A stretch of DNA of 64,000 bases. It comes from a virus (taxonomy: Duplodnaviria > Caudoviricetes). Location: the IMG/VR virus record IMGVR_UViG_3300021400_000244, positions 1 to 64,000 of that record; one strand, written 5' to 3'. Each line of letters begins with the position of its first letter. The first letter of the stretch is position 1. A model generated the notes under the pieces. That model saw only the letters and a program-made list of their open reading frames with translations. It was not told where the DNA came from and did not search any database. Below are positions 30,824-50,191 of the stretch, piece by piece. The translations under genes were made by a program, and so were the position numbers.

Positions 30824-32365
30824 ATGAAAGAACCTGTTATTGACGTTTCACATTGGGATGGTACAGTAGACTACAATGCTTGAATTGAAAAATATAATCT
30901 ATGAGGAGTTATTGTTAAATGCGGCGGCAATGAAACTAAATTAGGTCGTTATACTGATCCTCAATATGAAAATAATTATAAACGTGCAAAGGCCGCAGGT
31001 CTTCATGTTGGTGCATATTATTATAGTGTTGCCACCGAAGTAGAAGAAGCTAAAAAAGATGCGGAACATATTATTGGGCTACTCAAAGGACATTCTTTTG
31101 ATTTACCAATTTATTTAGATGTAGAAGATCCTAGACAATTCCGTCTTTCAAAACGAGTTTTAACTGATATAATAAAAACTTTCTGTGAAGCTTTAATTAA
31201 AGCAGGTTATTATGCCGGTGTATACATTCAAGGTTCAGCTTGGCTTGGTAATGTGTATAAAGATGAACTAAGTGATTATGCAAATTGAATTGCATGATGG
31301 CGCTCATCTTGACCAACCGAAGCTGGTGACATTGGTATGTGACAACAAGGTATGAGACGCTTTAATACTGGAAAGTTTTATTATGACGAGACACCTGGAG
31401 CTACCGATTTTGACTGATGTGTAATTGATTATCCTTCCCGCATTAAAGCTAATCAAAAGAAACAACCTTCAGAGACTCCAAAAGAAGAAACTAAGGAGGA
31501 AACGGTGGCAGATAACAAACTTACAAAATTCTGTGATTTAATGTACACCGCATGTGCTGAGTGATCTCTTGGATATGATCAGTATCAACGTCAAAATATT
31601 TATGATGGCGGAGAATGTGATTGTAGTTCATTAGTAATTTGAGCTTTAAAGCAAGCTGGTTTTGATACTGGTTCTGCTTCTTACACTGGTAATATGTCCA
31701 GTAATCTTACAGCTCGCGGATGGAAGCGTATTACTGCAGATCTATCTCAAGCTAAGCCAGGAGATATTTTACTTAATGATACTTATCATACAGCTGCAGT
31801 AATTTCTGGTTCTGGTTGAAATGCTAAAATTGCACAAGCGTCTATTGACGAACGTGGTTGCGCTACAGGTGGAACTGCCGGAGATCAAACTGGTAATGAA
31901 ACCAATGTCCGCAATATTTATACCTATAGTCACGGTTGGAGCTGCATTCTTCGTTGGGGTGGAGGAAGTACCTCTGGAACCTCTGGATCCTCTAGTAATA
32001 CGTCTACTAAACTAACTGTGGATGGTGTGGGCGGTCCTGCTACAATTAGAGCATGACAGAAATCTTTAAAGACTGTCCAAGATGGAGTTATTTCTGGACA
32101 GCTTCGTGGTAATTGAAAATATTTCCCAGCTATTACTTCTGTAACTTGGGAACGTACTGGTTCTCAATTAGTTATAGCAATTCAGAAAAAGGTTGGCGCT
32201 GATCCTGATGGATATTGGGGTCCAGATACATCCCGCAAGATTCAACAATTCTTAATTAAGAATGGGTTTAGCGTAGGTCCTGAAGGAGCAGATAGTTACT
32301 TCGGTACTAATTCTGTGAAAGGACTACAGAAGTCTCTTAATAGCTCTAAGAATCCTTGGAAATAA
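30824..32365 (+). CDS. Endolysin: GH25 muramidase, NlpC/P60-like peptidase and peptidoglycan-binding repeats, 513 aa (~12 TGA=Trp)
   Basis: IDVSHWDG...GLHVGAYYYS...PIYLDVED (GH25); YDQ...DCSSLV...HTA (NlpC/P60); VDGVGGPATIRAWQ and DGYWGPDTSRKIQ. Confidence 0.88.
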
Positions 32366-39567: not shown

Positions 39568-39889
39568 ATTGCTCCTTCTTTTTTTTATCCTTTTGGGTCT
39601 TACGCAAAGATTCTACAAACTTTTTATGATTCATTTTCGCAAAATCTTCACGGAGTGCGCTATCCCAATCTGCGTAGCCAATTGTTACCGAACCAGTTTC
39701 TTCGTTTAACTCTAAAAAATCACCGTCATAAAGATAATGTTCTTTACTATCGGTATAAGTATGTTTAAAAACTAAGAAAAAAGTAATTGCGGCCGATCCT
39801 CGAACTTGCGTGATAAGACCGCAATCAATTAATTTTTCAACTCACCAAGGAATAATATTATCACCAACATAATATCTAGTTTTCATCAT
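39533..39889 (-). CDS. Hypothetical protein, 118 aa (1 TGA=Trp)
   Basis: MMKTRYYVGDNIIPWWVEK...; fills the gap between dnaE and gmk; ends TAG. Confidence 0.6.
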
Positions 39890-42800
39890 CACCACTTTCT
39901 CCCCATCTCCATGCTGTCATATCTATTGTACCATTATTTTTTACTTCTGTCAAGATACGATAACATTGATGTGATTTCGTATGACGATATGACTTAGTGA
40001 AGAACATTCCTGATCTCTTAAATCCATTAAACATTAACAAAGTTCCACGAGTGAACCAGCCTTTTTCCATTACTTTCTTTGATCCATCTGGCTGGACTTG
40101 ACTCATTTGTCGATTCAATCTTGCATAATAATCTCTACTCATTTTAACTGTAACTACACCACTTTCAGGTGTAAGAATACTTACACAAGATTTATTATCT
40201 TCTTTTGCTACTACTGCACCAACAATTCGACAAGTTTTAAATAATGGAATATCAATCCCATTACGTTTAAAAGTTCTATCAACTGGCGGATTATCTGGCA
40301 AACTATTATAAGCCTTTATATTATATGCCAACTTATCAAGTTTCTTCATTGGATGATCATGATAATAAAAACCAAGACTATCCATTTCCCAAGTTGACAA
40401 TGTACCTGCCGCATATTTATTCCAAACTTCATCAAACAAAGTTTGATTTAATTTTTGTAACATTTCATCTTGATGTTCCCGCAAATAATCTCGAGCTTTA
40501 TCCATACCTTTTGTATAAAGTTTTTGCCAAACTTTTTGATCAATTGCAATATTACCATCATAAATAGTAGTTAAATCTACATCAAAAAATTCTTCATAAA
40601 ACTCATAAAAATTATCTGGAAGTAAATAAACATCATCAAGTTTACAGAATTTCCGCAAAGCCTTGTTAAATACAAATAATCTTCTTTCAAAACTAAGACT
40701 ATCTGGGATTAAATTTCTTTCCATCAAACCATTAAAATTTTGAAGAGTTAATCTCTTTTTTGGCTCACAAATTGACCAGATATATTCCCGCATAATATCT
40801 TCTCTATTACCAAACTTATCAAAAGCTCCGCTCTTAATAAGTGAAATCAAAACTGGCTTCTTAACTTTTACTCTCTCTTGGAAATCATTAAAACTTTCAT
40901 ATGGACGATTTTCAATAATATCTTGAATAATCTCTCCACCTACTCCGTTCAAACCTTTCATTCCAAAAAGAATACTACCAGTCTCAACATCTGGTTCAAA
41001 CATATATCCTGACTTATTGATATCAATTAATGACATTGGAATACCACAATGAATAATATTTCCTACTGCTTTCGCAATCTTACCATAATTACTACTCGCA
41101 TCTTCATCAAGTCCTGCATCAACTCTAAGACACGCCGTATTCCAATAGACAGGATCAAAATAAGTTGCAAGATAAATCGTTTGCAATCCTACAAAACTAT
41201 ATGCCAAACTATGAATAAGTGAGAAAGAATATCCCATTTGCGGTTTAATTGCAGTTTCCCAAACATATTCACCAAGTCTTTGATTAACTGCTTTACTCAA
41301 AACCAATTCATGCAATTCTTCAATTCGATTCATTTGTTTCTTTGCACAAATCTTGCGGGCATCATTTGCTTCTTTAAGACTAAATCCACAAATATCTGGA
41401 TCCATTAAAATCATCATCATATCTTCTTGCTGCGCGGGAGTTGCATAAGTTTCAAGATAATATCTCTCTAATATCTTTTGATCTACTTCCCGCAAATGCC
41501 ATCTTGACATTTCATCATACCAACGAGACATATTATCTTTCATTCTTTTATATCTCTCAGTTGGTGTCTCTCCACCCTTTTCTGCGGCCATTAATCTCAT
41601 TACAGAATTACAGTTTGCCATTTCGCGTGGTGACTTTGGCCGCAACAATTTTACAGTTTGACTTCCAACTTGACTATCAAACTGGAAAAGTTTTAATACT
41701 TTACCCTCAGCAAGAACATTCCACATCTTATCATCATCTATTGGAAGAACGTCTGGATGAAGATATTTATCATACAATTGTCGCAAACTTAAATTTTGAT
41801 CAACCTCATTATATTCACTCAACATATTAAGACATTGAACAATTACATCCTGAATTTCTGTTACAAGAAAATCAAATTTAACGTCTCCGCAATATTCTGC
41901 ATCGTGAAGTGAGAACTGAGTTACAATTGCTCCACTTGTTGCTTTCATAAAACATGCACTATCAAATGGATCATTCATATAAAAGTTTACACCACTCGCG
42001 TGAATACCACGATGATTAATCAATCCTTCAATTTTCTCAATAATTTCAAGAAGTCCCGGATATTTTCTAACTTCCGCTAGGAAATTCTTTACTGGCTTAC
42101 GATCTTTTTCTTCATTACCATAAACCAAATCATGAACCGGCCAAACAAATCCACGTTCACTTGGTGCAAGACTTGTCATATATTGAGCTACATCATTATC
42201 AATTCCATCTGGAAAATCTTTTGAACGATAACCACGACAAGCTGTTGAGATTGCTGAACGTGTTGTCTCTGTACCATATGTACAAACTTGAACGCATCCA
42301 AGTTGACCAACTTCTTCACGAATTGATTTAAAAATTTCTTCTCTCTTGGATGGGCAAATATCAATATCAATATCTCCCAACTCAATACGCTCTTTATTAC
42401 TATATCTCCAATAGGGAAGATTATACTTAATTGGATCAAGCTGAGTAATTCCTAGAAGATAATGATTCAATCCAGAACATGCGGAACCTCGTCCCGCGCC
42501 TACAGTTGAACCAATTTCCCAAAATGAATCAATGTAATGCTGAAGAAAAATTGGATATGCAAACATACAAGTTCCAAGTTTTTCTCCAATTACTTTCTGA
42601 ATATCTGCTTCTTCTTCAAGTCGCGCAAGATAAATATCATTGAACAAATTAAGTTCTTTAAGTTTATCACAACAATAATTAACCCAATATCTTTCTTGCG
42701 GATTATCACTTGAATACAAATAATCCAAAGTATTATAACCCATCTTTGACATTACTTTAGGATAATCTTTTACTGGAACTTGCGGGACTTGCTGTTTATG

Positions 42801-43701
42801 TGCAAAACCAAAATCTTGAATCTTACTTTTTACTTCCAAAGTATTTGCTTCAAGTTCCGCATAATCAAGACCAGTTCCTTCAAGATTTTGAATTATTTCT
42901 TCTGTCGTTTGAAGATACGCATACGCATAAAATTCATCTACTTCTCGATCACCTTGTTTTGAGTTAAGAAATGCCTTATGAACTTCTCGATCACTCTTCT
43001 TCAAATAATGAGCATCAGTTGTTACTACAATCTTAACTCCAAAATAATCACTCAAAGCTTTCATTCGACTATTAACAATCATCTGCTCTCTACTTTGAGC
43101 TGGCTGAATCTCAAAATAATAATCGTCTCCAAATACAGACTTACACCAATTTACAAAATCTACAATCCTATAATAATATTCAGCCTTACCTTCAATATTA
43201 CCAACTCTCTCAGCTTTATCCATTTCAAGAATACAATAATCAAGTTCTGAACCAAGACATGCGGATGATGCAATAAGATGACCCTTACCAAATTCTTCTA
43301 CACATGCCATTACTTCTGCTTTGAGAGTTGGCACTCTCTCCATACCTCTATCAAAATAACTATTCATCCAAGAATTTGATGACAGTTTCCGCAGCATCTT
43401 TGCACCAATTGCATCTTTTGCAATTAAAATAAAGTGCCAATATCGCTGTCCACTTCCACGTTCATCAATAAGATAAATCTCATTACCATATCCAATTTTA
43501 AAACTTGGATTCTTCTTTTGGACTTTCTGTCTAATCTGATCAAGCTTAACCCAATTACCTAATGCTTCATGGTCAGTTAAACAAATACCTTCAAGACCAA
43601 TTTCTACGGCATAATTAACAAGAGAATCAACTGTATTTATGCAGTCAAAGTAAGCGAATATTGCTCATATCAGAATGGGAATGCATCTCAAACCTAGACA
43701 A
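39876..43701 (-). CDS. dnaE: DNA polymerase III alpha subunit (family C), 1274 aa, requiring a +1 frameshift after codon 18
   Basis: AAGGAGG RBS and TTG 43701 give MSRFEMHSHSDMSNIRLL. The +1 frame continues DCINTVDSLV...LTDHE (PHP domain) into track ORF 39876-43397 with GAGRGS, DIDID, GIHASG and YSFSLIHS. Confidence 0.9.
43644..43650 (-). promoter_or_regulatory. Candidate programmed +1 frameshift site CTT-TGA-C (prfB-type heptamer)
   Basis: Minus strand CGC TTA CTT TGA CTG; the PHP motif HxH...LLD is restored only by a +1 shift here. Confidence 0.6.
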
Positions 43702-44554
43702 TATTCTCCCTCCTTTCACTCATAATATTTTCAATAAAATAATCAGACGTTGTATGTGTTTTTTCTTTAAATTCTACTCATTCTTTTTGTGTCATATCTC
43801 TTTTAGCTAAATTTTCAAATACAGTTAAAACTTGTAAATTTGTAAAATTATTTCCTCCACCTTTGGACTTAGGTATAATATGATCTAAACTAGGTTTTGC
43901 TCAGTCATAATAAGTATCTTCTTTTTCATGTGCTTTTCAAAAATTATATACCATTAAAAACTGTTTGTCAACTTCTAATTGTTGAATAGCTTCTTCATAT
44001 TCTTCAATTGGACAATTAATATAATAACGATCAGTCGCAGAATCAACTAATAACCTATGTAAAAATAAAAACCATTCAAAGTTATCTTTATATTTATCAA
44101 CAAATTCTTCTCTCATTCCTGGACGAGCAGAAGCTAAAAAAGCTCTTTGTTTTCGTCCACACCCGCAAGTTTCTTGATGATAATTACCGTTTGTAGTTAA
44201 ATAAGAAAATCTAACTTGTATATGTTTTTTACCACAATTTAAACAATCACAATACATTAATGTTCCATTGTATTGTTGATTATATTCTTCTTTTGGAACT
44301 ATACCTGTTATTTTTAATTTACCTACAGTTTTTCCTATATAATCTTTTGGTTTTTCTTTTATAGATCGAGCTTTGATTTGATATTCATTTGAATGAATAT
44401 ACTCTTTAAAAGAATTAAAATCGTAATTTCAAATGTTTTTTTCTTTAATTCCTTTAACATAACCTTTTGTAACTCACCTAGAAATTGTAGCTCTAGGTAA
44501 GTTACGTTGAAATTGAGTATAAAAATATTCATTTAATTCTTGATAAGAGGCCAT
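43694..44554 (-). CDS. Free-standing HNH endonuclease, 286 aa (5 TGA=Trp)
   Basis: AAGGAG RBS; CDCLNCG and TCGCG; KPSLDHIIPKSKGGGNNFTNLQVLTVFENLAK; its TAG overlaps the dnaE start. Confidence 0.82.
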
Positions 44555-44864: not shown

Positions 44865-46655
44865 TTAAAATACCCATTCTTCATTAATATAAAAATCCTC
44901 AATAATAAGTTGTGCAGTTACATTTCCATTTCATTCATTTCTTGAACAACGGCACACCGCAGTAAGATACATATTAGGTCTAGTAAATTGTTCAAATTCT
45001 TCTTGTGAAGATTTAAATTTCATAATATCTACACCATTTGATAAATGTATTTTTAGCGTAGGATGTTTATCCGGCGAAAGAAGTTGAACAGAAGTTAGAG
45101 GAATGTCTTTAATTGCAATATATGGTTCAGGTAATCCCTGTCCCCAAGTAGATTTATTCTGTGCAATCATTAGAATCTTCTGAGGATCAATATCTTTATT
45201 AAACCATTCAAAATCAACCCAATATACAGGTTCTTGCGCAGCTTCACTATAAATTGCATTAGTCTTTTGAATAAAATCTTGCAATTTAGATTCAGGAATA
45301 GAGATTCCGAAAGCTGAGCTATGGCCCTGTGCATATTCTACATCCCCTGTATCTTCACAGAGCTGCCGCATATCTTCTATTTCTGACATAGAATAATTTC
45401 TAGCGGATCCTCTATAATAATATTCCTTATCATCTTTCCCTTTTGACTTTGTGAGGACAAGACATGGGTGCTGATATTTCGCTTGAATCTTATTGGCGAC
45501 AAGTCCAGCGAGATTTTTTTCCACTTCTCCGGGTTCGCAGCAACAGACAATAATACCATTTTCTGTCAATCGTTCAGTTTGAATTCGTTGTTCGAGCAAA
45601 TCCATTGCAGCATCTTGGAGCTTTGTTTGTCTAGCTTTGACGTTAGCTGCGATTCTAACTGCTTCTTCAACTCTTGGTACCAGTTCTCCTTTGTGGCCAC
45701 GTTTACCACTCTCAATCTTATCGAAGGCATAAAACTTTAGCATAGATTTAAAAATTAAATCTTTTTCTTCCATAGTACCAGAACGCACAATAGCATTGAT
45801 AAATGGAGTTACATAAAATGCTATTGACATATAATTAATTCCACCCATTTTATCAATACTAAATTTATTTTTTTCACACATATAATAGAAGAATGGATTA
45901 TGAATATTACCTAACCCCATATCAATAATGGCTTTGTTTTCTAGTGATCTGTAATCACACATATCACTCAGGACACCCAATGCTGCAAGATCAACATACT
46001 GATTCGCACCAAGCCAACTTTCAAGGTTAGTTAATCCCATAACCATATCGTATGCTCGACAAATACGCCAAGTTACACCAGCTCCAGATAAATCTTTATT
46101 AGGATAATCACAAATTTGATTATTGATAATGATACAATTATCATTATGAATTCAATTATCAGATTCATGGTGGTCCATACAAAGAACATACTTACCAGCA
46201 TCTACTAATTGTTGCATCTGTTCAATATTATTTGTACCTGCATCTGGAATTACAATAAGACTTGAATCATCCTCTAAAAGTTGATCTATAACATCCTCTA
46301 ACCCATGCTGTTTCCCGCTATGCAAAACATAACGTAGTTTAGGAAGAATTTTTGCTTTACTCTGATCATAAGAATATAAATCATACATATAATTCAAAAA
46401 AATTGCGGCACTCGTAAAACCATCTGCATCTGCATCTACTACTACAGTCAAAGGTACTTCTGCTTCAACAGCTGTCCGCATTAATTCAACAGCTCTCATA
46501 ACAATACCTTCACCAAAAGCAAAAGGAGAATTTACATCTTCTCAGAAAGAAGCGTTAATCCATTTATCTTGATCTTCTTTTGTCTTTATTCCACGATTAT
46601 ATAATATTTGTCGCATCGTTCCTTGTGTAGGCTCATTAAATAATTTATAAATCAA
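44865..46655 (-). CDS. recJ: RecJ-like ssDNA exonuclease (DHH family), 596 aa (3 TGA=Trp)
   Basis: VDADADG, PDAG, MDHH, LSGAGV, ALGVLSD, RGSAR and QGHSSAFG; fragments 46152-46499 and 44931-46046 in frame. Confidence 0.88.
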
Positions 46656-50008: not shown

Positions 50009-50099
50009 TGGCGGAGTAACTCAGAATTGAACTGAGACAGCCCTTATTTTAGGCTGGAAGGATTAGCAATCCTCTGCGATACCATTACGCCATTACTCC
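50009..50099 (-). tRNA. tRNA-Ser(GCT)
   Basis: GGAGTAA/TTACTCC acceptor with G73 and CCA; anticodon loop TT-GCT-AA; long variable arm; TTCAATT T-loop. Confidence 0.9.
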
Positions 50100-50101
50100 G
50101 G

Positions 50102-50191
50102 AAGAGAGTAAGGGATTCGAACCCTTGAGACGTTTATAAACGCCTTCCTGTTTTCTAGACAGATGCCTTCAACCAACTCGGCCAACTCTCC
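50102..50191 (-). tRNA. tRNA-Ser(AGA), A34 anticodon
   Basis: GGAGAGT/ACTCTCT acceptor; TCTGT-CTAGAAA-ACAGG anticodon arm; long variable arm; GTTCGAATC T-loop; no encoded CCA. Confidence 0.82.

Follow-up and report, generated by a model that had tools for sequence, protein, structure and literature searches.

The window analyzed here is a stretch of 64,000 nt that comprises positions 1 to 64,000 of the IMG/VR virus record IMGVR_UViG_3300021400_000244, and it represents the first half of this 125.5-kb record (34.6% GC, estimated to be 83% complete) of an uncultured rumen phage of the Caudoviricetes. Sequencing runs that contain this stretch come from goat, sheep, and bovine gut. On the minus strand of the window, the dnaE gene for a C-family DNA polymerase is broken into two reading frames: a leader of 18 codons, preceded by a ribosome-binding site (RBS) and starting with TTG, runs into CTT TGA C, whereas the remainder of the polymerase is encoded in the +1 frame. 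A free-standing HNH endonuclease gene lies directly upstream. Here, we describe the break, its recurrence in related phages, and its association with the HNH gene, and we consider it probable that the polymerase is produced by a +1 ribosomal shift across a break left by a nuclease cassette.

The reading-frame break in dnaE

The features of dnaE in the window are as follows:

43713-43706, minus strand: Shine-Dalgarno sequence GGAGGGAG of the dnaE leader, classed as strong, inside the 3' end of the HNH gene
43701-43699, minus strand: dnaE start codon TTG, read from the sequence
43648..43701, minus strand: dnaE leader in frame 0, 18 codons from the TTG start to CGC TTA CTT, encoding the His-x-His of PHP motif I
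43651..43653, minus strand: TTA, the codon predicted to occupy the E site as the shift takes place; UUR is kept in shifted relatives
43644..43650, minus strand: shift heptamer CTT TGA C, with CUU as the P-site codon, UGA (43647-43645) as the A-site stop, and C as a weak-termination context
39876..43646, minus strand: dnaE body in the +1 frame, 1256 codons and a TAG stop, C-family polymerase resembling YorL of SPbeta
43617-43615, minus strand: TAA that closes frame 0 after decoding of UGA as Trp; the resulting peptide of 28 residues is a dead end

Read from the TTG at 43701, frame 0 on the minus strand encodes MSRFEMHSHSDMSNIRLL ahead of CTT TGA C, and the reading in full is M/L-SRFEMHSHSDMSNIRLL. 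The last leader codons are CGC (43656-54), TTA (43653-51), and CTT (43650-48), placing the UGA early in the gene, at codon 19. The +1 frame opens with GAC TGC ATA AAT (DCINT...LTDHE) and continues for 1256 codons to the TAG at 39878-39876. An initial annotation, made from the sequence alone, had described a break after 18 codons equipped with an RBS and TTG, and all of its descriptive statements are correct: the site is the exact CTT-TGA-C heptamer of the bacterial release factor 2 (RF2) gene prfB, the polymerase body occupies a 1256-codon open frame that needs a +1 shift, and the UGA at the site is the sole in-frame UGA of the gene, the body having 20 TGG and 0 TGA codons. The three translational outcomes that it had listed also follow from the sequence, namely, termination by RF2, a shift into the polymerase frame, and decoding as Trp, which ends after 28 residues at the TAA at 43617-15. 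The heptamer itself is not rare (11 copies in the 125-kb genome); what goes beyond chance is its location exactly at the frame junction within a conserved motif together with its recurrence at that codon in relatives. The predicted tryptic peptide across the shift junction starts LLDCINTVDSLVNYAVEIGLEGICLTDHEALGNWVK, and its companion predicted peptide is FEMHSHSDMSNIR.

The body matches the Pfam domain models PHP, DNA_pol3_alpha, finger, and HHH_6 in the canonical order of C-family DnaE and is 38.9% identical to YorL from Bacillus phage SPbeta across 98% of its length. Its PHP match begins only at profile position 11, whereas that of the unbroken homologue L001 begins at position 2, demonstrating that the leader carries the missing His-x-His metal ligands (profile positions 2-10). 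No polymerase family other than that of dnaE was detected in the virus record (estimated 83% complete). With an intact body and no alternative polymerase at hand, translation must get past the break, and a +1 slip would be the simplest way to do so, given the behavior of the prfB heptamer. We infer that dnaE is essential for the phage, which is a premise of the explanation developed later.

The initial annotation had also cautioned that the extra T might be an assembly error, and a single added base in a short run of Ts is indeed a common error type. We checked positions 43644-43650 on contigs and found that contigs from three independent ruminant studies (runs X1, X2, and X7) carry three Ts and bridge these positions without an indel; they differ from the window at 0 positions (X1), at 9 positions in 438 nt (X2, goat), and at 30 positions in 844 nt (X7, sheep). 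Loose contig ends from a bovine RNA library change to the unbroken allele (...CGT CTT ATC GAT TGT ATT) at 43637 and 43642, revealing that both alleles circulate; the RNA-library contigs examined represent the unshifted allele rather than that of the window and are, therefore, uninformative as to whether the shifted gene is expressed. That the break is a mistake of assembly or sequencing, or that the gene is dead, has a negligible probability given the identical sequence in three independent studies, the presence of the break in at least 32 diverged relatives, and the intact body of 1256 codons in the only polymerase gene of the record, and the earlier caveat is rejected. The dnaE sequence in the window is best explained by the heritable insertion of a single T between the codons for Leu and Asp in PHP motif I, which created CUU-UGA-C.

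Relatives in IMG/VR were gathered by scanning with sequence patterns, with a dnaE profile, and with an HNH profile. The pattern scans, in which CTT-TGA-Y had to follow S-N-[ILV]-R-L-L and precede D-[SC]-I-N, gave about 30 viral contigs and two contigs from metagenome-assembled genomes, and the best 80 of more than 568 relatives identified with the dnaE profile constitute an unbiased sample. At least 32 unique sequences from diverged phages have CTT-TGA-Y at the same dnaE codon. Among the 79 loci of the best-80 sample that were classified, 70 are unbroken, 3 have the CTT-TGA-Y shift, and 6 have other breaks. The nearest relatives in IMG/VR (85-98% aa identity) encode an uninterrupted R-L-I-D, whereas L017, a 75% relative, has CGT TTA CTT TGA C at the same codon. 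A tree built from 133 unique N-terminal dnaE sequences implies no fewer than 18 changes of the shifted state.

The shifted leaders are highly divergent (e.g., DFVHLHVHSEY, SSYFNCHNHTWY, and RLDYHCHSSL). Entropy at codon positions 1, 2, and 3 is 0.66, 0.70, and 1.28 in 30 unique shifted leaders and 0.69, 0.63, and 1.38 in unbroken genes, and both His residues of His-x-His are kept in 33/33 leaders with variation between CAT and CAC. Judged from this pattern of variation, the leader evolves as frame-0 coding sequence. Shifted and unshifted genes also differ in the vicinity of the site: a GGAGGGA-type signature is present upstream of 21/32 shifted leaders versus 8/75 unshifted ones; the codon before CTT is TTA or TTG in 32/32 versus 38/78; the Arg codon is CGC in 19/32 versus 1/78; and the Asp codon is GAC in 28/32 versus 15/78, the family otherwise preferring GAT (63/78). 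These codon preferences may stem either from selection in favor of shifting or from common ancestry of a segment that was transferred.

Association of the break with an upstream HNH gene

The region upstream of the dnaE leader and the junction with the body contain the following features:

43694..44554, minus strand: free-standing HNH endonuclease gene, 286 aa, directly upstream of dnaE; its stop overlaps dnaE codons 2-3
44865..46655, minus strand: RecJ-like exonuclease gene (Pfam DHH, RecJ_OB), the conserved upstream flank of the HNH insertion
43637..43643, minus strand: approximate point from which the sequence again matches the unbroken allele (L001 type); a co-conversion tract may end here

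The HNH protein matches the PHROG endonuclease VII and HNH families (E = 5e-13); its match to the Pfam HNH model falls just below the cut-off, whereas that of the homologue L023 is above it. An alignment with 11 homologues fixes the start of the protein at Met30. A sequence search found no solved structure for this family, and in cultured phages we found neither the break nor the HNH family beyond weak partial HNH matches in Pseudoalteromonas and Vibrio phages, which leaves the family without a convenient cultured model. TAA recoding was considered for L021/L022 and rejected, as the four in-frame TAA codons lie upstream of the true HNH start.

A member of this HNH family is encoded directly upstream of dnaE in 23/34 unique shifted loci as opposed to 6/76 informative unbroken loci. 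In the best-80 sample, a strong HNH-family match lies upstream in 3/3 shifted and 0/70 unbroken loci. The HNH-profile search alone yielded about 47 loci with dnaE downstream, of which approximately 28 have CTT-TGA-Y, approximately 14 have gaps that begin with a stop codon, and 5 are unbroken. Among 14 phylogenetically independent pairs, HNH goes with an interruption in 9.2 and the opposite holds in 0.9 (median sign-test p 0.02). The HNH gene and the break co-occur beyond phylogeny.

The stop-initiated gaps are found at the 5' end of dnaE in L142, L169-L173, L175, L176, L185, L153, L166, L167, L180, L069-L072, L119, and L123. They are 4-7 nt long (8 nt in one case), begin with TAA, TAG, or TGA, and are positioned a few codons earlier than the shift site, after H-x-H-x-x-x-S of the same PHP motif. 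Most are bounded by matching or near-matching take-off and landing codons, as in TCT-TGAGG-TCT, TCT-TAGTGGG-TCT, and TAT-TAGT-TAT, and from this arrangement they look like short ribosomal hops. Among the unique gaps, 12/17 lie downstream of the same HNH family.

Presence and absence of the insertion are polymorphic with sharp boundaries between the window on the one side and L001, L002, L014, and L016 on the other. The gene order in the window is RecJ-like gene, HNH gene, and shifted dnaE; in L001 and L016, it is RecJ-like gene, spacer, and unbroken dnaE, with the two genes about 330 nt or about 27 nt apart and no HNH gene. Compared with L001, the dnaE body of the window has approximately 96% nucleotide identity (27-30/30 in each 30-nt bin), whereas the 54-nt leader matches at 35/54 positions (65-70%). 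All 3 differences in the first bin of the body fall within 9 nt after the extra T, and identity resumes there. A second pair, L162/L139, has 92% identity in the body and 70% in the leader, whereas in 58 control pairs of two unbroken genes the mean difference of leader minus body is -0.02. Homing accompanied by a short co-conversion tract would leave such a mosaic.

L017 is shifted and HNH-less, and its upstream region shares only the last 17-20 nt, the RBS region, of the HNH gene, which is suggestive of a remnant but not conclusive. In L034, a TAG-containing ORF of 267 aa occupies the HNH position and weakly matches this HNH family.

Other putative selfish elements were noticed in and near dnaE of relatives. 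In L017 (L017:5457-6545), dnaE is additionally split near residue 805, with a gene for a 281-aa GIY-YIG endonuclease between the halves and no match to an Rfam intron model, and several other relatives close the dnaE frame near residue 805-811, which suggests that selfish elements have a second preferred location in this polymerase. In L041 (L041:11306-13552) and L053 (L053:2635-4881), the gene upstream of dnaE encodes an SF1 helicase with a LAGLIDADG/Hom_end domain that is probably an intein.

Genetic code of the phage and evaluation of explanations

As the initial annotation had proposed, the phage reads TGA as Trp: coverage by ORFs is 0.52-0.62 with code 11 and increases to 0.91-0.96 with code 4, and TGA is aligned with conserved Trp in the HNH and RecJ-like proteins. 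The HNH gene has 5 in-frame TGA codons, 3 of which are at all-Trp columns, 1 at a mostly-Trp column, and 1 at a Tyr column. The phage encodes a tRNA with the anticodon UCA, its only UGA-reading tRNA, which is located outside the window (genome 76722-76818; L199:1223-1316). The variable arm of this tRNA is long, giving it a class II shape, its discriminator base is G, and ARAGORN calls it tRNA-SeC, although TGA lines up with conserved Trp in proteins of the phage. The phage record (83% complete) yielded no release-factor gene. TGA codons are strongly partitioned between late and core replication genes, with 12 in frame in the endolysin gene and 0 in the dnaE body, the primase gene, and the helicase gene:

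30824-32365, plus strand: endolysin with GH25 muramidase, Amidase_5, and PG-binding domains; 12 in-frame TGA

The GH25/Amidase_5 endolysin and the SPbeta-like polymerase suggest a host from the Bacillota. Further RNA genes were recorded along with the UCA tRNA. In the tRNA cluster, 80 nt (L199:3735-3814; genome about 79234-79313) match the Rfam tmRNA model with 64 bits, which exceeds the gathering score; only the ends of the model are covered, and the element is, therefore, probably a tRNA-like fragment and not a full tmRNA. The same cluster contains a 91-nt 'tRNA-Ile(UAU)' (genome 76023-76113) that is unusually long for that identity, and two adjoining tRNA-Ser genes (GCU and AGA) are located in the replication arm (window 50009-50191, minus strand).

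The explanation that we favor and regard as probable is a +1 ribosomal shift at CUU-UGA-C across a break that was left by the linked HNH nuclease cassette and that is not a code sensor. While UGA-C, which is decoded slowly, occupies the A site of the ribosome, the peptidyl-tRNA-Leu on CUU would re-pair on UUU one base forward, and reading would go on at GAC. A free-standing HNH homing-endonuclease cassette, located between the RecJ-like gene and dnaE, would either include the T insertion or have provoked it, and the extra T would most likely make the allele resistant to the nuclease, by analogy with the gene 60 insert and the MobA nuclease of phage T4. With dnaE essential, only interruptions that ribosomes can step over would survive, that is, the shifty stop here and the short stop-initiated gaps in sister lineages. 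The reading of TGA as Trp would be incidental to the origin of the site and would add a third competitor at the UGA, the suppressor tRNA.

Several points weigh against this explanation. An HNH gene is lacking upstream of 11/34 unique shifted loci and present at 6 unbroken loci; by analogy, the HNH-less shifted loci could be like bypass cassettes without MobA, or they could be resistance alleles that arose in targets. A large part of the shifted sequences was found through CTTTGA patterns or the HNH profile, and frequencies outside the best-80 sample are, therefore, biased. As the initial annotation had noted for the window, the internal Shine-Dalgarno element of prfB is absent, and a search for Shine-Dalgarno-like 4-mers in the 21 nt upstream of CTT gave 0/32 unique shifted sites. 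There is likewise no conserved RNA structure around the site (alifold energy 0.00 in both the shifted and the unshifted set), and in the absence of both elements the efficiency of frameshifting may be low. Frameshifting at the site is predicted, and the target of the HNH nuclease and the protection by the extra T are putative. Finally, a start codon in the +1 frame is present upstream of the Asp codon in 23/33 shifted genes, mostly a TTG 15 codons upstream, and could in principle yield a polymerase without His-x-His.

This last point leads to an explanation without any frameshift, in which the body is translated from such a start (TTG 43691 in the window) as a polymerase lacking His-x-His and the frame-0 leader is a relic. 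The TTG is indeed found at that distance in most shifted genes and shares the RBS region; however, it is a by-product of the conserved R-F-E/D codons, the window has a TGA at codon 9 of that frame, and the product would consist of 15 junk residues ahead of an incomplete PHP metal site. Moreover, the leader is constrained as coding sequence in frame 0 with both His residues invariably kept, and we regard this explanation as very improbable. The persistence of the shift in the 11/34 loci without an HNH gene would also accord with an attenuator that is independent of the nuclease and senses RF2, setting a low or RF2-dependent level of polymerase, with the HNH gene as a hitch-hiker. The UGA-C context and the UUR codon in the E site are kept as such a device would have it, and the heptamer can sense RF2 in prfB (PMC12421855). 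Nevertheless, 70/79 classified loci of the unbiased sample do without the site, the changes of state on the tree are more in keeping with a scar that is mobile or has been selected repeatedly than with a conserved regulator, and sister HNH loci have different interruptions elsewhere in the motif, pointing to a DNA site rather than RF2 sensing as the common factor; an attenuator is thus unlikely, although it retains some weight.

The initial annotation had interpreted the site as a genetic-code sensor or timer of UGA-recoding phages, through which polymerase would be produced only as long as UGA undergoes neither termination by RF2 nor decoding by tRNA(UCA), its synthesis ceasing when suppression becomes efficient. 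The TGA recoding of the phage and its tRNA(UCA) are in line with this idea, as are the avoidance of TGA in the dnaE body next to an HNH gene with 5 TGA codons and the dead-end 28-residue peptide that results from Trp decoding at the UGA. The distribution that it predicts, in UGA-recoded phages only, fails both ways. The same site is present in the standard-code G002 (code-11 coverage 0.93-0.96 across 40 kb) and in the TAG-recoded G004 (coverage rising from 0.60 to 0.77-0.84; tRNA-CUA) and L051 (7 in-frame TAG codons in the HNH gene, 3 of them at conserved Gln columns), whereas the closest TGA-recoded relatives, L003, L005, L010, and L013 (85-92% aa identity), are unbroken with R-L-I-D. The TGA-recoded shifted alleles are those of the window and L017, and among the HNH-bearing shifted loci TGA is a sense codon in the window only. 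In-frame CTT-TGA occurs 3 times among 253 sense TGA codons compared with 6.4 expected, a mild depletion that is not significant, and C follows 12% of sense TGA codons versus 19% of TGG codons in this phage, which is a weak hint. Because the site exists under three codes and TGA-recoded relatives are unbroken, recoding is not the reason for its existence; the break instead co-varies with the upstream HNH gene, which the initial annotation had overlooked, and a code sensor is quite unlikely. The two ideas could be combined if a nuclease-derived CUU-UGA-C had been co-opted as a timer in this TGA-recoded phage. Early in infection, only RF2 would compete with the shift and polymerase would be made; later, tRNA(UCA) accumulating for the TGA-rich late genes would divert ribosomes to the 28-residue dead end and polymerase would go down. 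We consider such co-option unlikely.

Relation to known recoding systems

Full-text searches of the literature found no description of a frameshifted phage dnaE. If our explanation of an HNH-linked break crossed by a +1 shift is correct, dnaE shows that the RF2 slip heptamer is used naturally and widely in a gene other than prfB, one that is essential to phages, and apparently in the absence of the Shine-Dalgarno stimulator to which importance for this heptamer is ascribed. Together with the gaps in sister loci, it would suggest a rule by which homing-endonuclease pressure on an essential gene selects interruptions that are repairable only by ribosomal recoding, and if this rule holds, T4 gene 60 would be one of a class and not an oddity. 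Annotation would be affected, as gene callers truncate such polymerases. The loci would also offer a small natural system in which to study +1 shifting and short hops in gut Bacillota and would allow the interplay of stop-codon reassignment and shifty stops to be tested.

The programmed +1 frameshift of bacterial prfB was reportedly described by Craigen and Caskey in 1986. It takes place at CUU UGA C with an internal Shine-Dalgarno AGGGGG located 3 nt upstream of CUU (PMC12421855). The dnaE site shares with prfB the identical heptamer, the +1 direction, the C after the stop, the conservation across many lineages, and the early position in the gene (codon 19 here and codon 26 in Escherichia coli prfB). 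It differs in that the dnaE sites have no internal Shine-Dalgarno and in that UUA or UUG precedes CUU in phage dnaE, whereas UAU precedes CUU in E. coli prfB. Also different from prfB, the product is a DNA polymerase and there is accordingly no autoregulatory RF2 loop, and the site in phage dnaE has a patchy distribution and goes together with a mobile gene for a nuclease.

Stop codons are reassigned in gut phages, with TAG recoded to Gln and TGA to Trp (PMC9523058). As in those phages, the recoded stop is abundant in late and lysis genes of the phage of the window and absent from its core replication genes, and a suppressor-type tRNA is encoded; the frameshift site, in contrast, is no feature of recoding and exists under all three codes. 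In the G-run of the herpesvirus thymidine kinase gene, compensatory frameshifting occurs at a 'savior' indel (PMC5009743). In both cases, an indel that would benefit the virus, at the level of DNA or drug, is tolerated as some ribosomes restore the frame. Unlike the 'savior' indels, the dnaE indel creates a dedicated shifty stop and is evolutionarily widespread, and its proposed benefit is nuclease resistance.

In phage T4, the homing endonuclease MobA and the 50-nt translational bypass of gene 60 form a cassette (Bonocora et al. 2011, as related in PMC5009743), and some relatives have lost the nuclease and retain the recoding insert (bioRxiv 10.1101/2022.08.31.505936; PMC5009743). The likeness to dnaE is as follows: a free-standing endonuclease of the HNH family adjoins an essential replication gene; an out-of-frame insert that begins with a stop codon must be stepped over in translation; and the nuclease is lost while the insert is kept in some relatives, with presence varying among close relatives. 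The systems differ in that the insert is 1 nt here (4-7 nt in the sister loci) rather than 50 nt, in that frameshifting in dnaE would rely on a simple shifty stop and involve neither nascent-peptide nor hairpin signals, and in that the dnaE target is not split and that cleavage and protection are putative. By analogy, then, the closest counterparts of the dnaE break would be prfB for the site and T4 mobA/gene 60 for the logic, reduced to one base.

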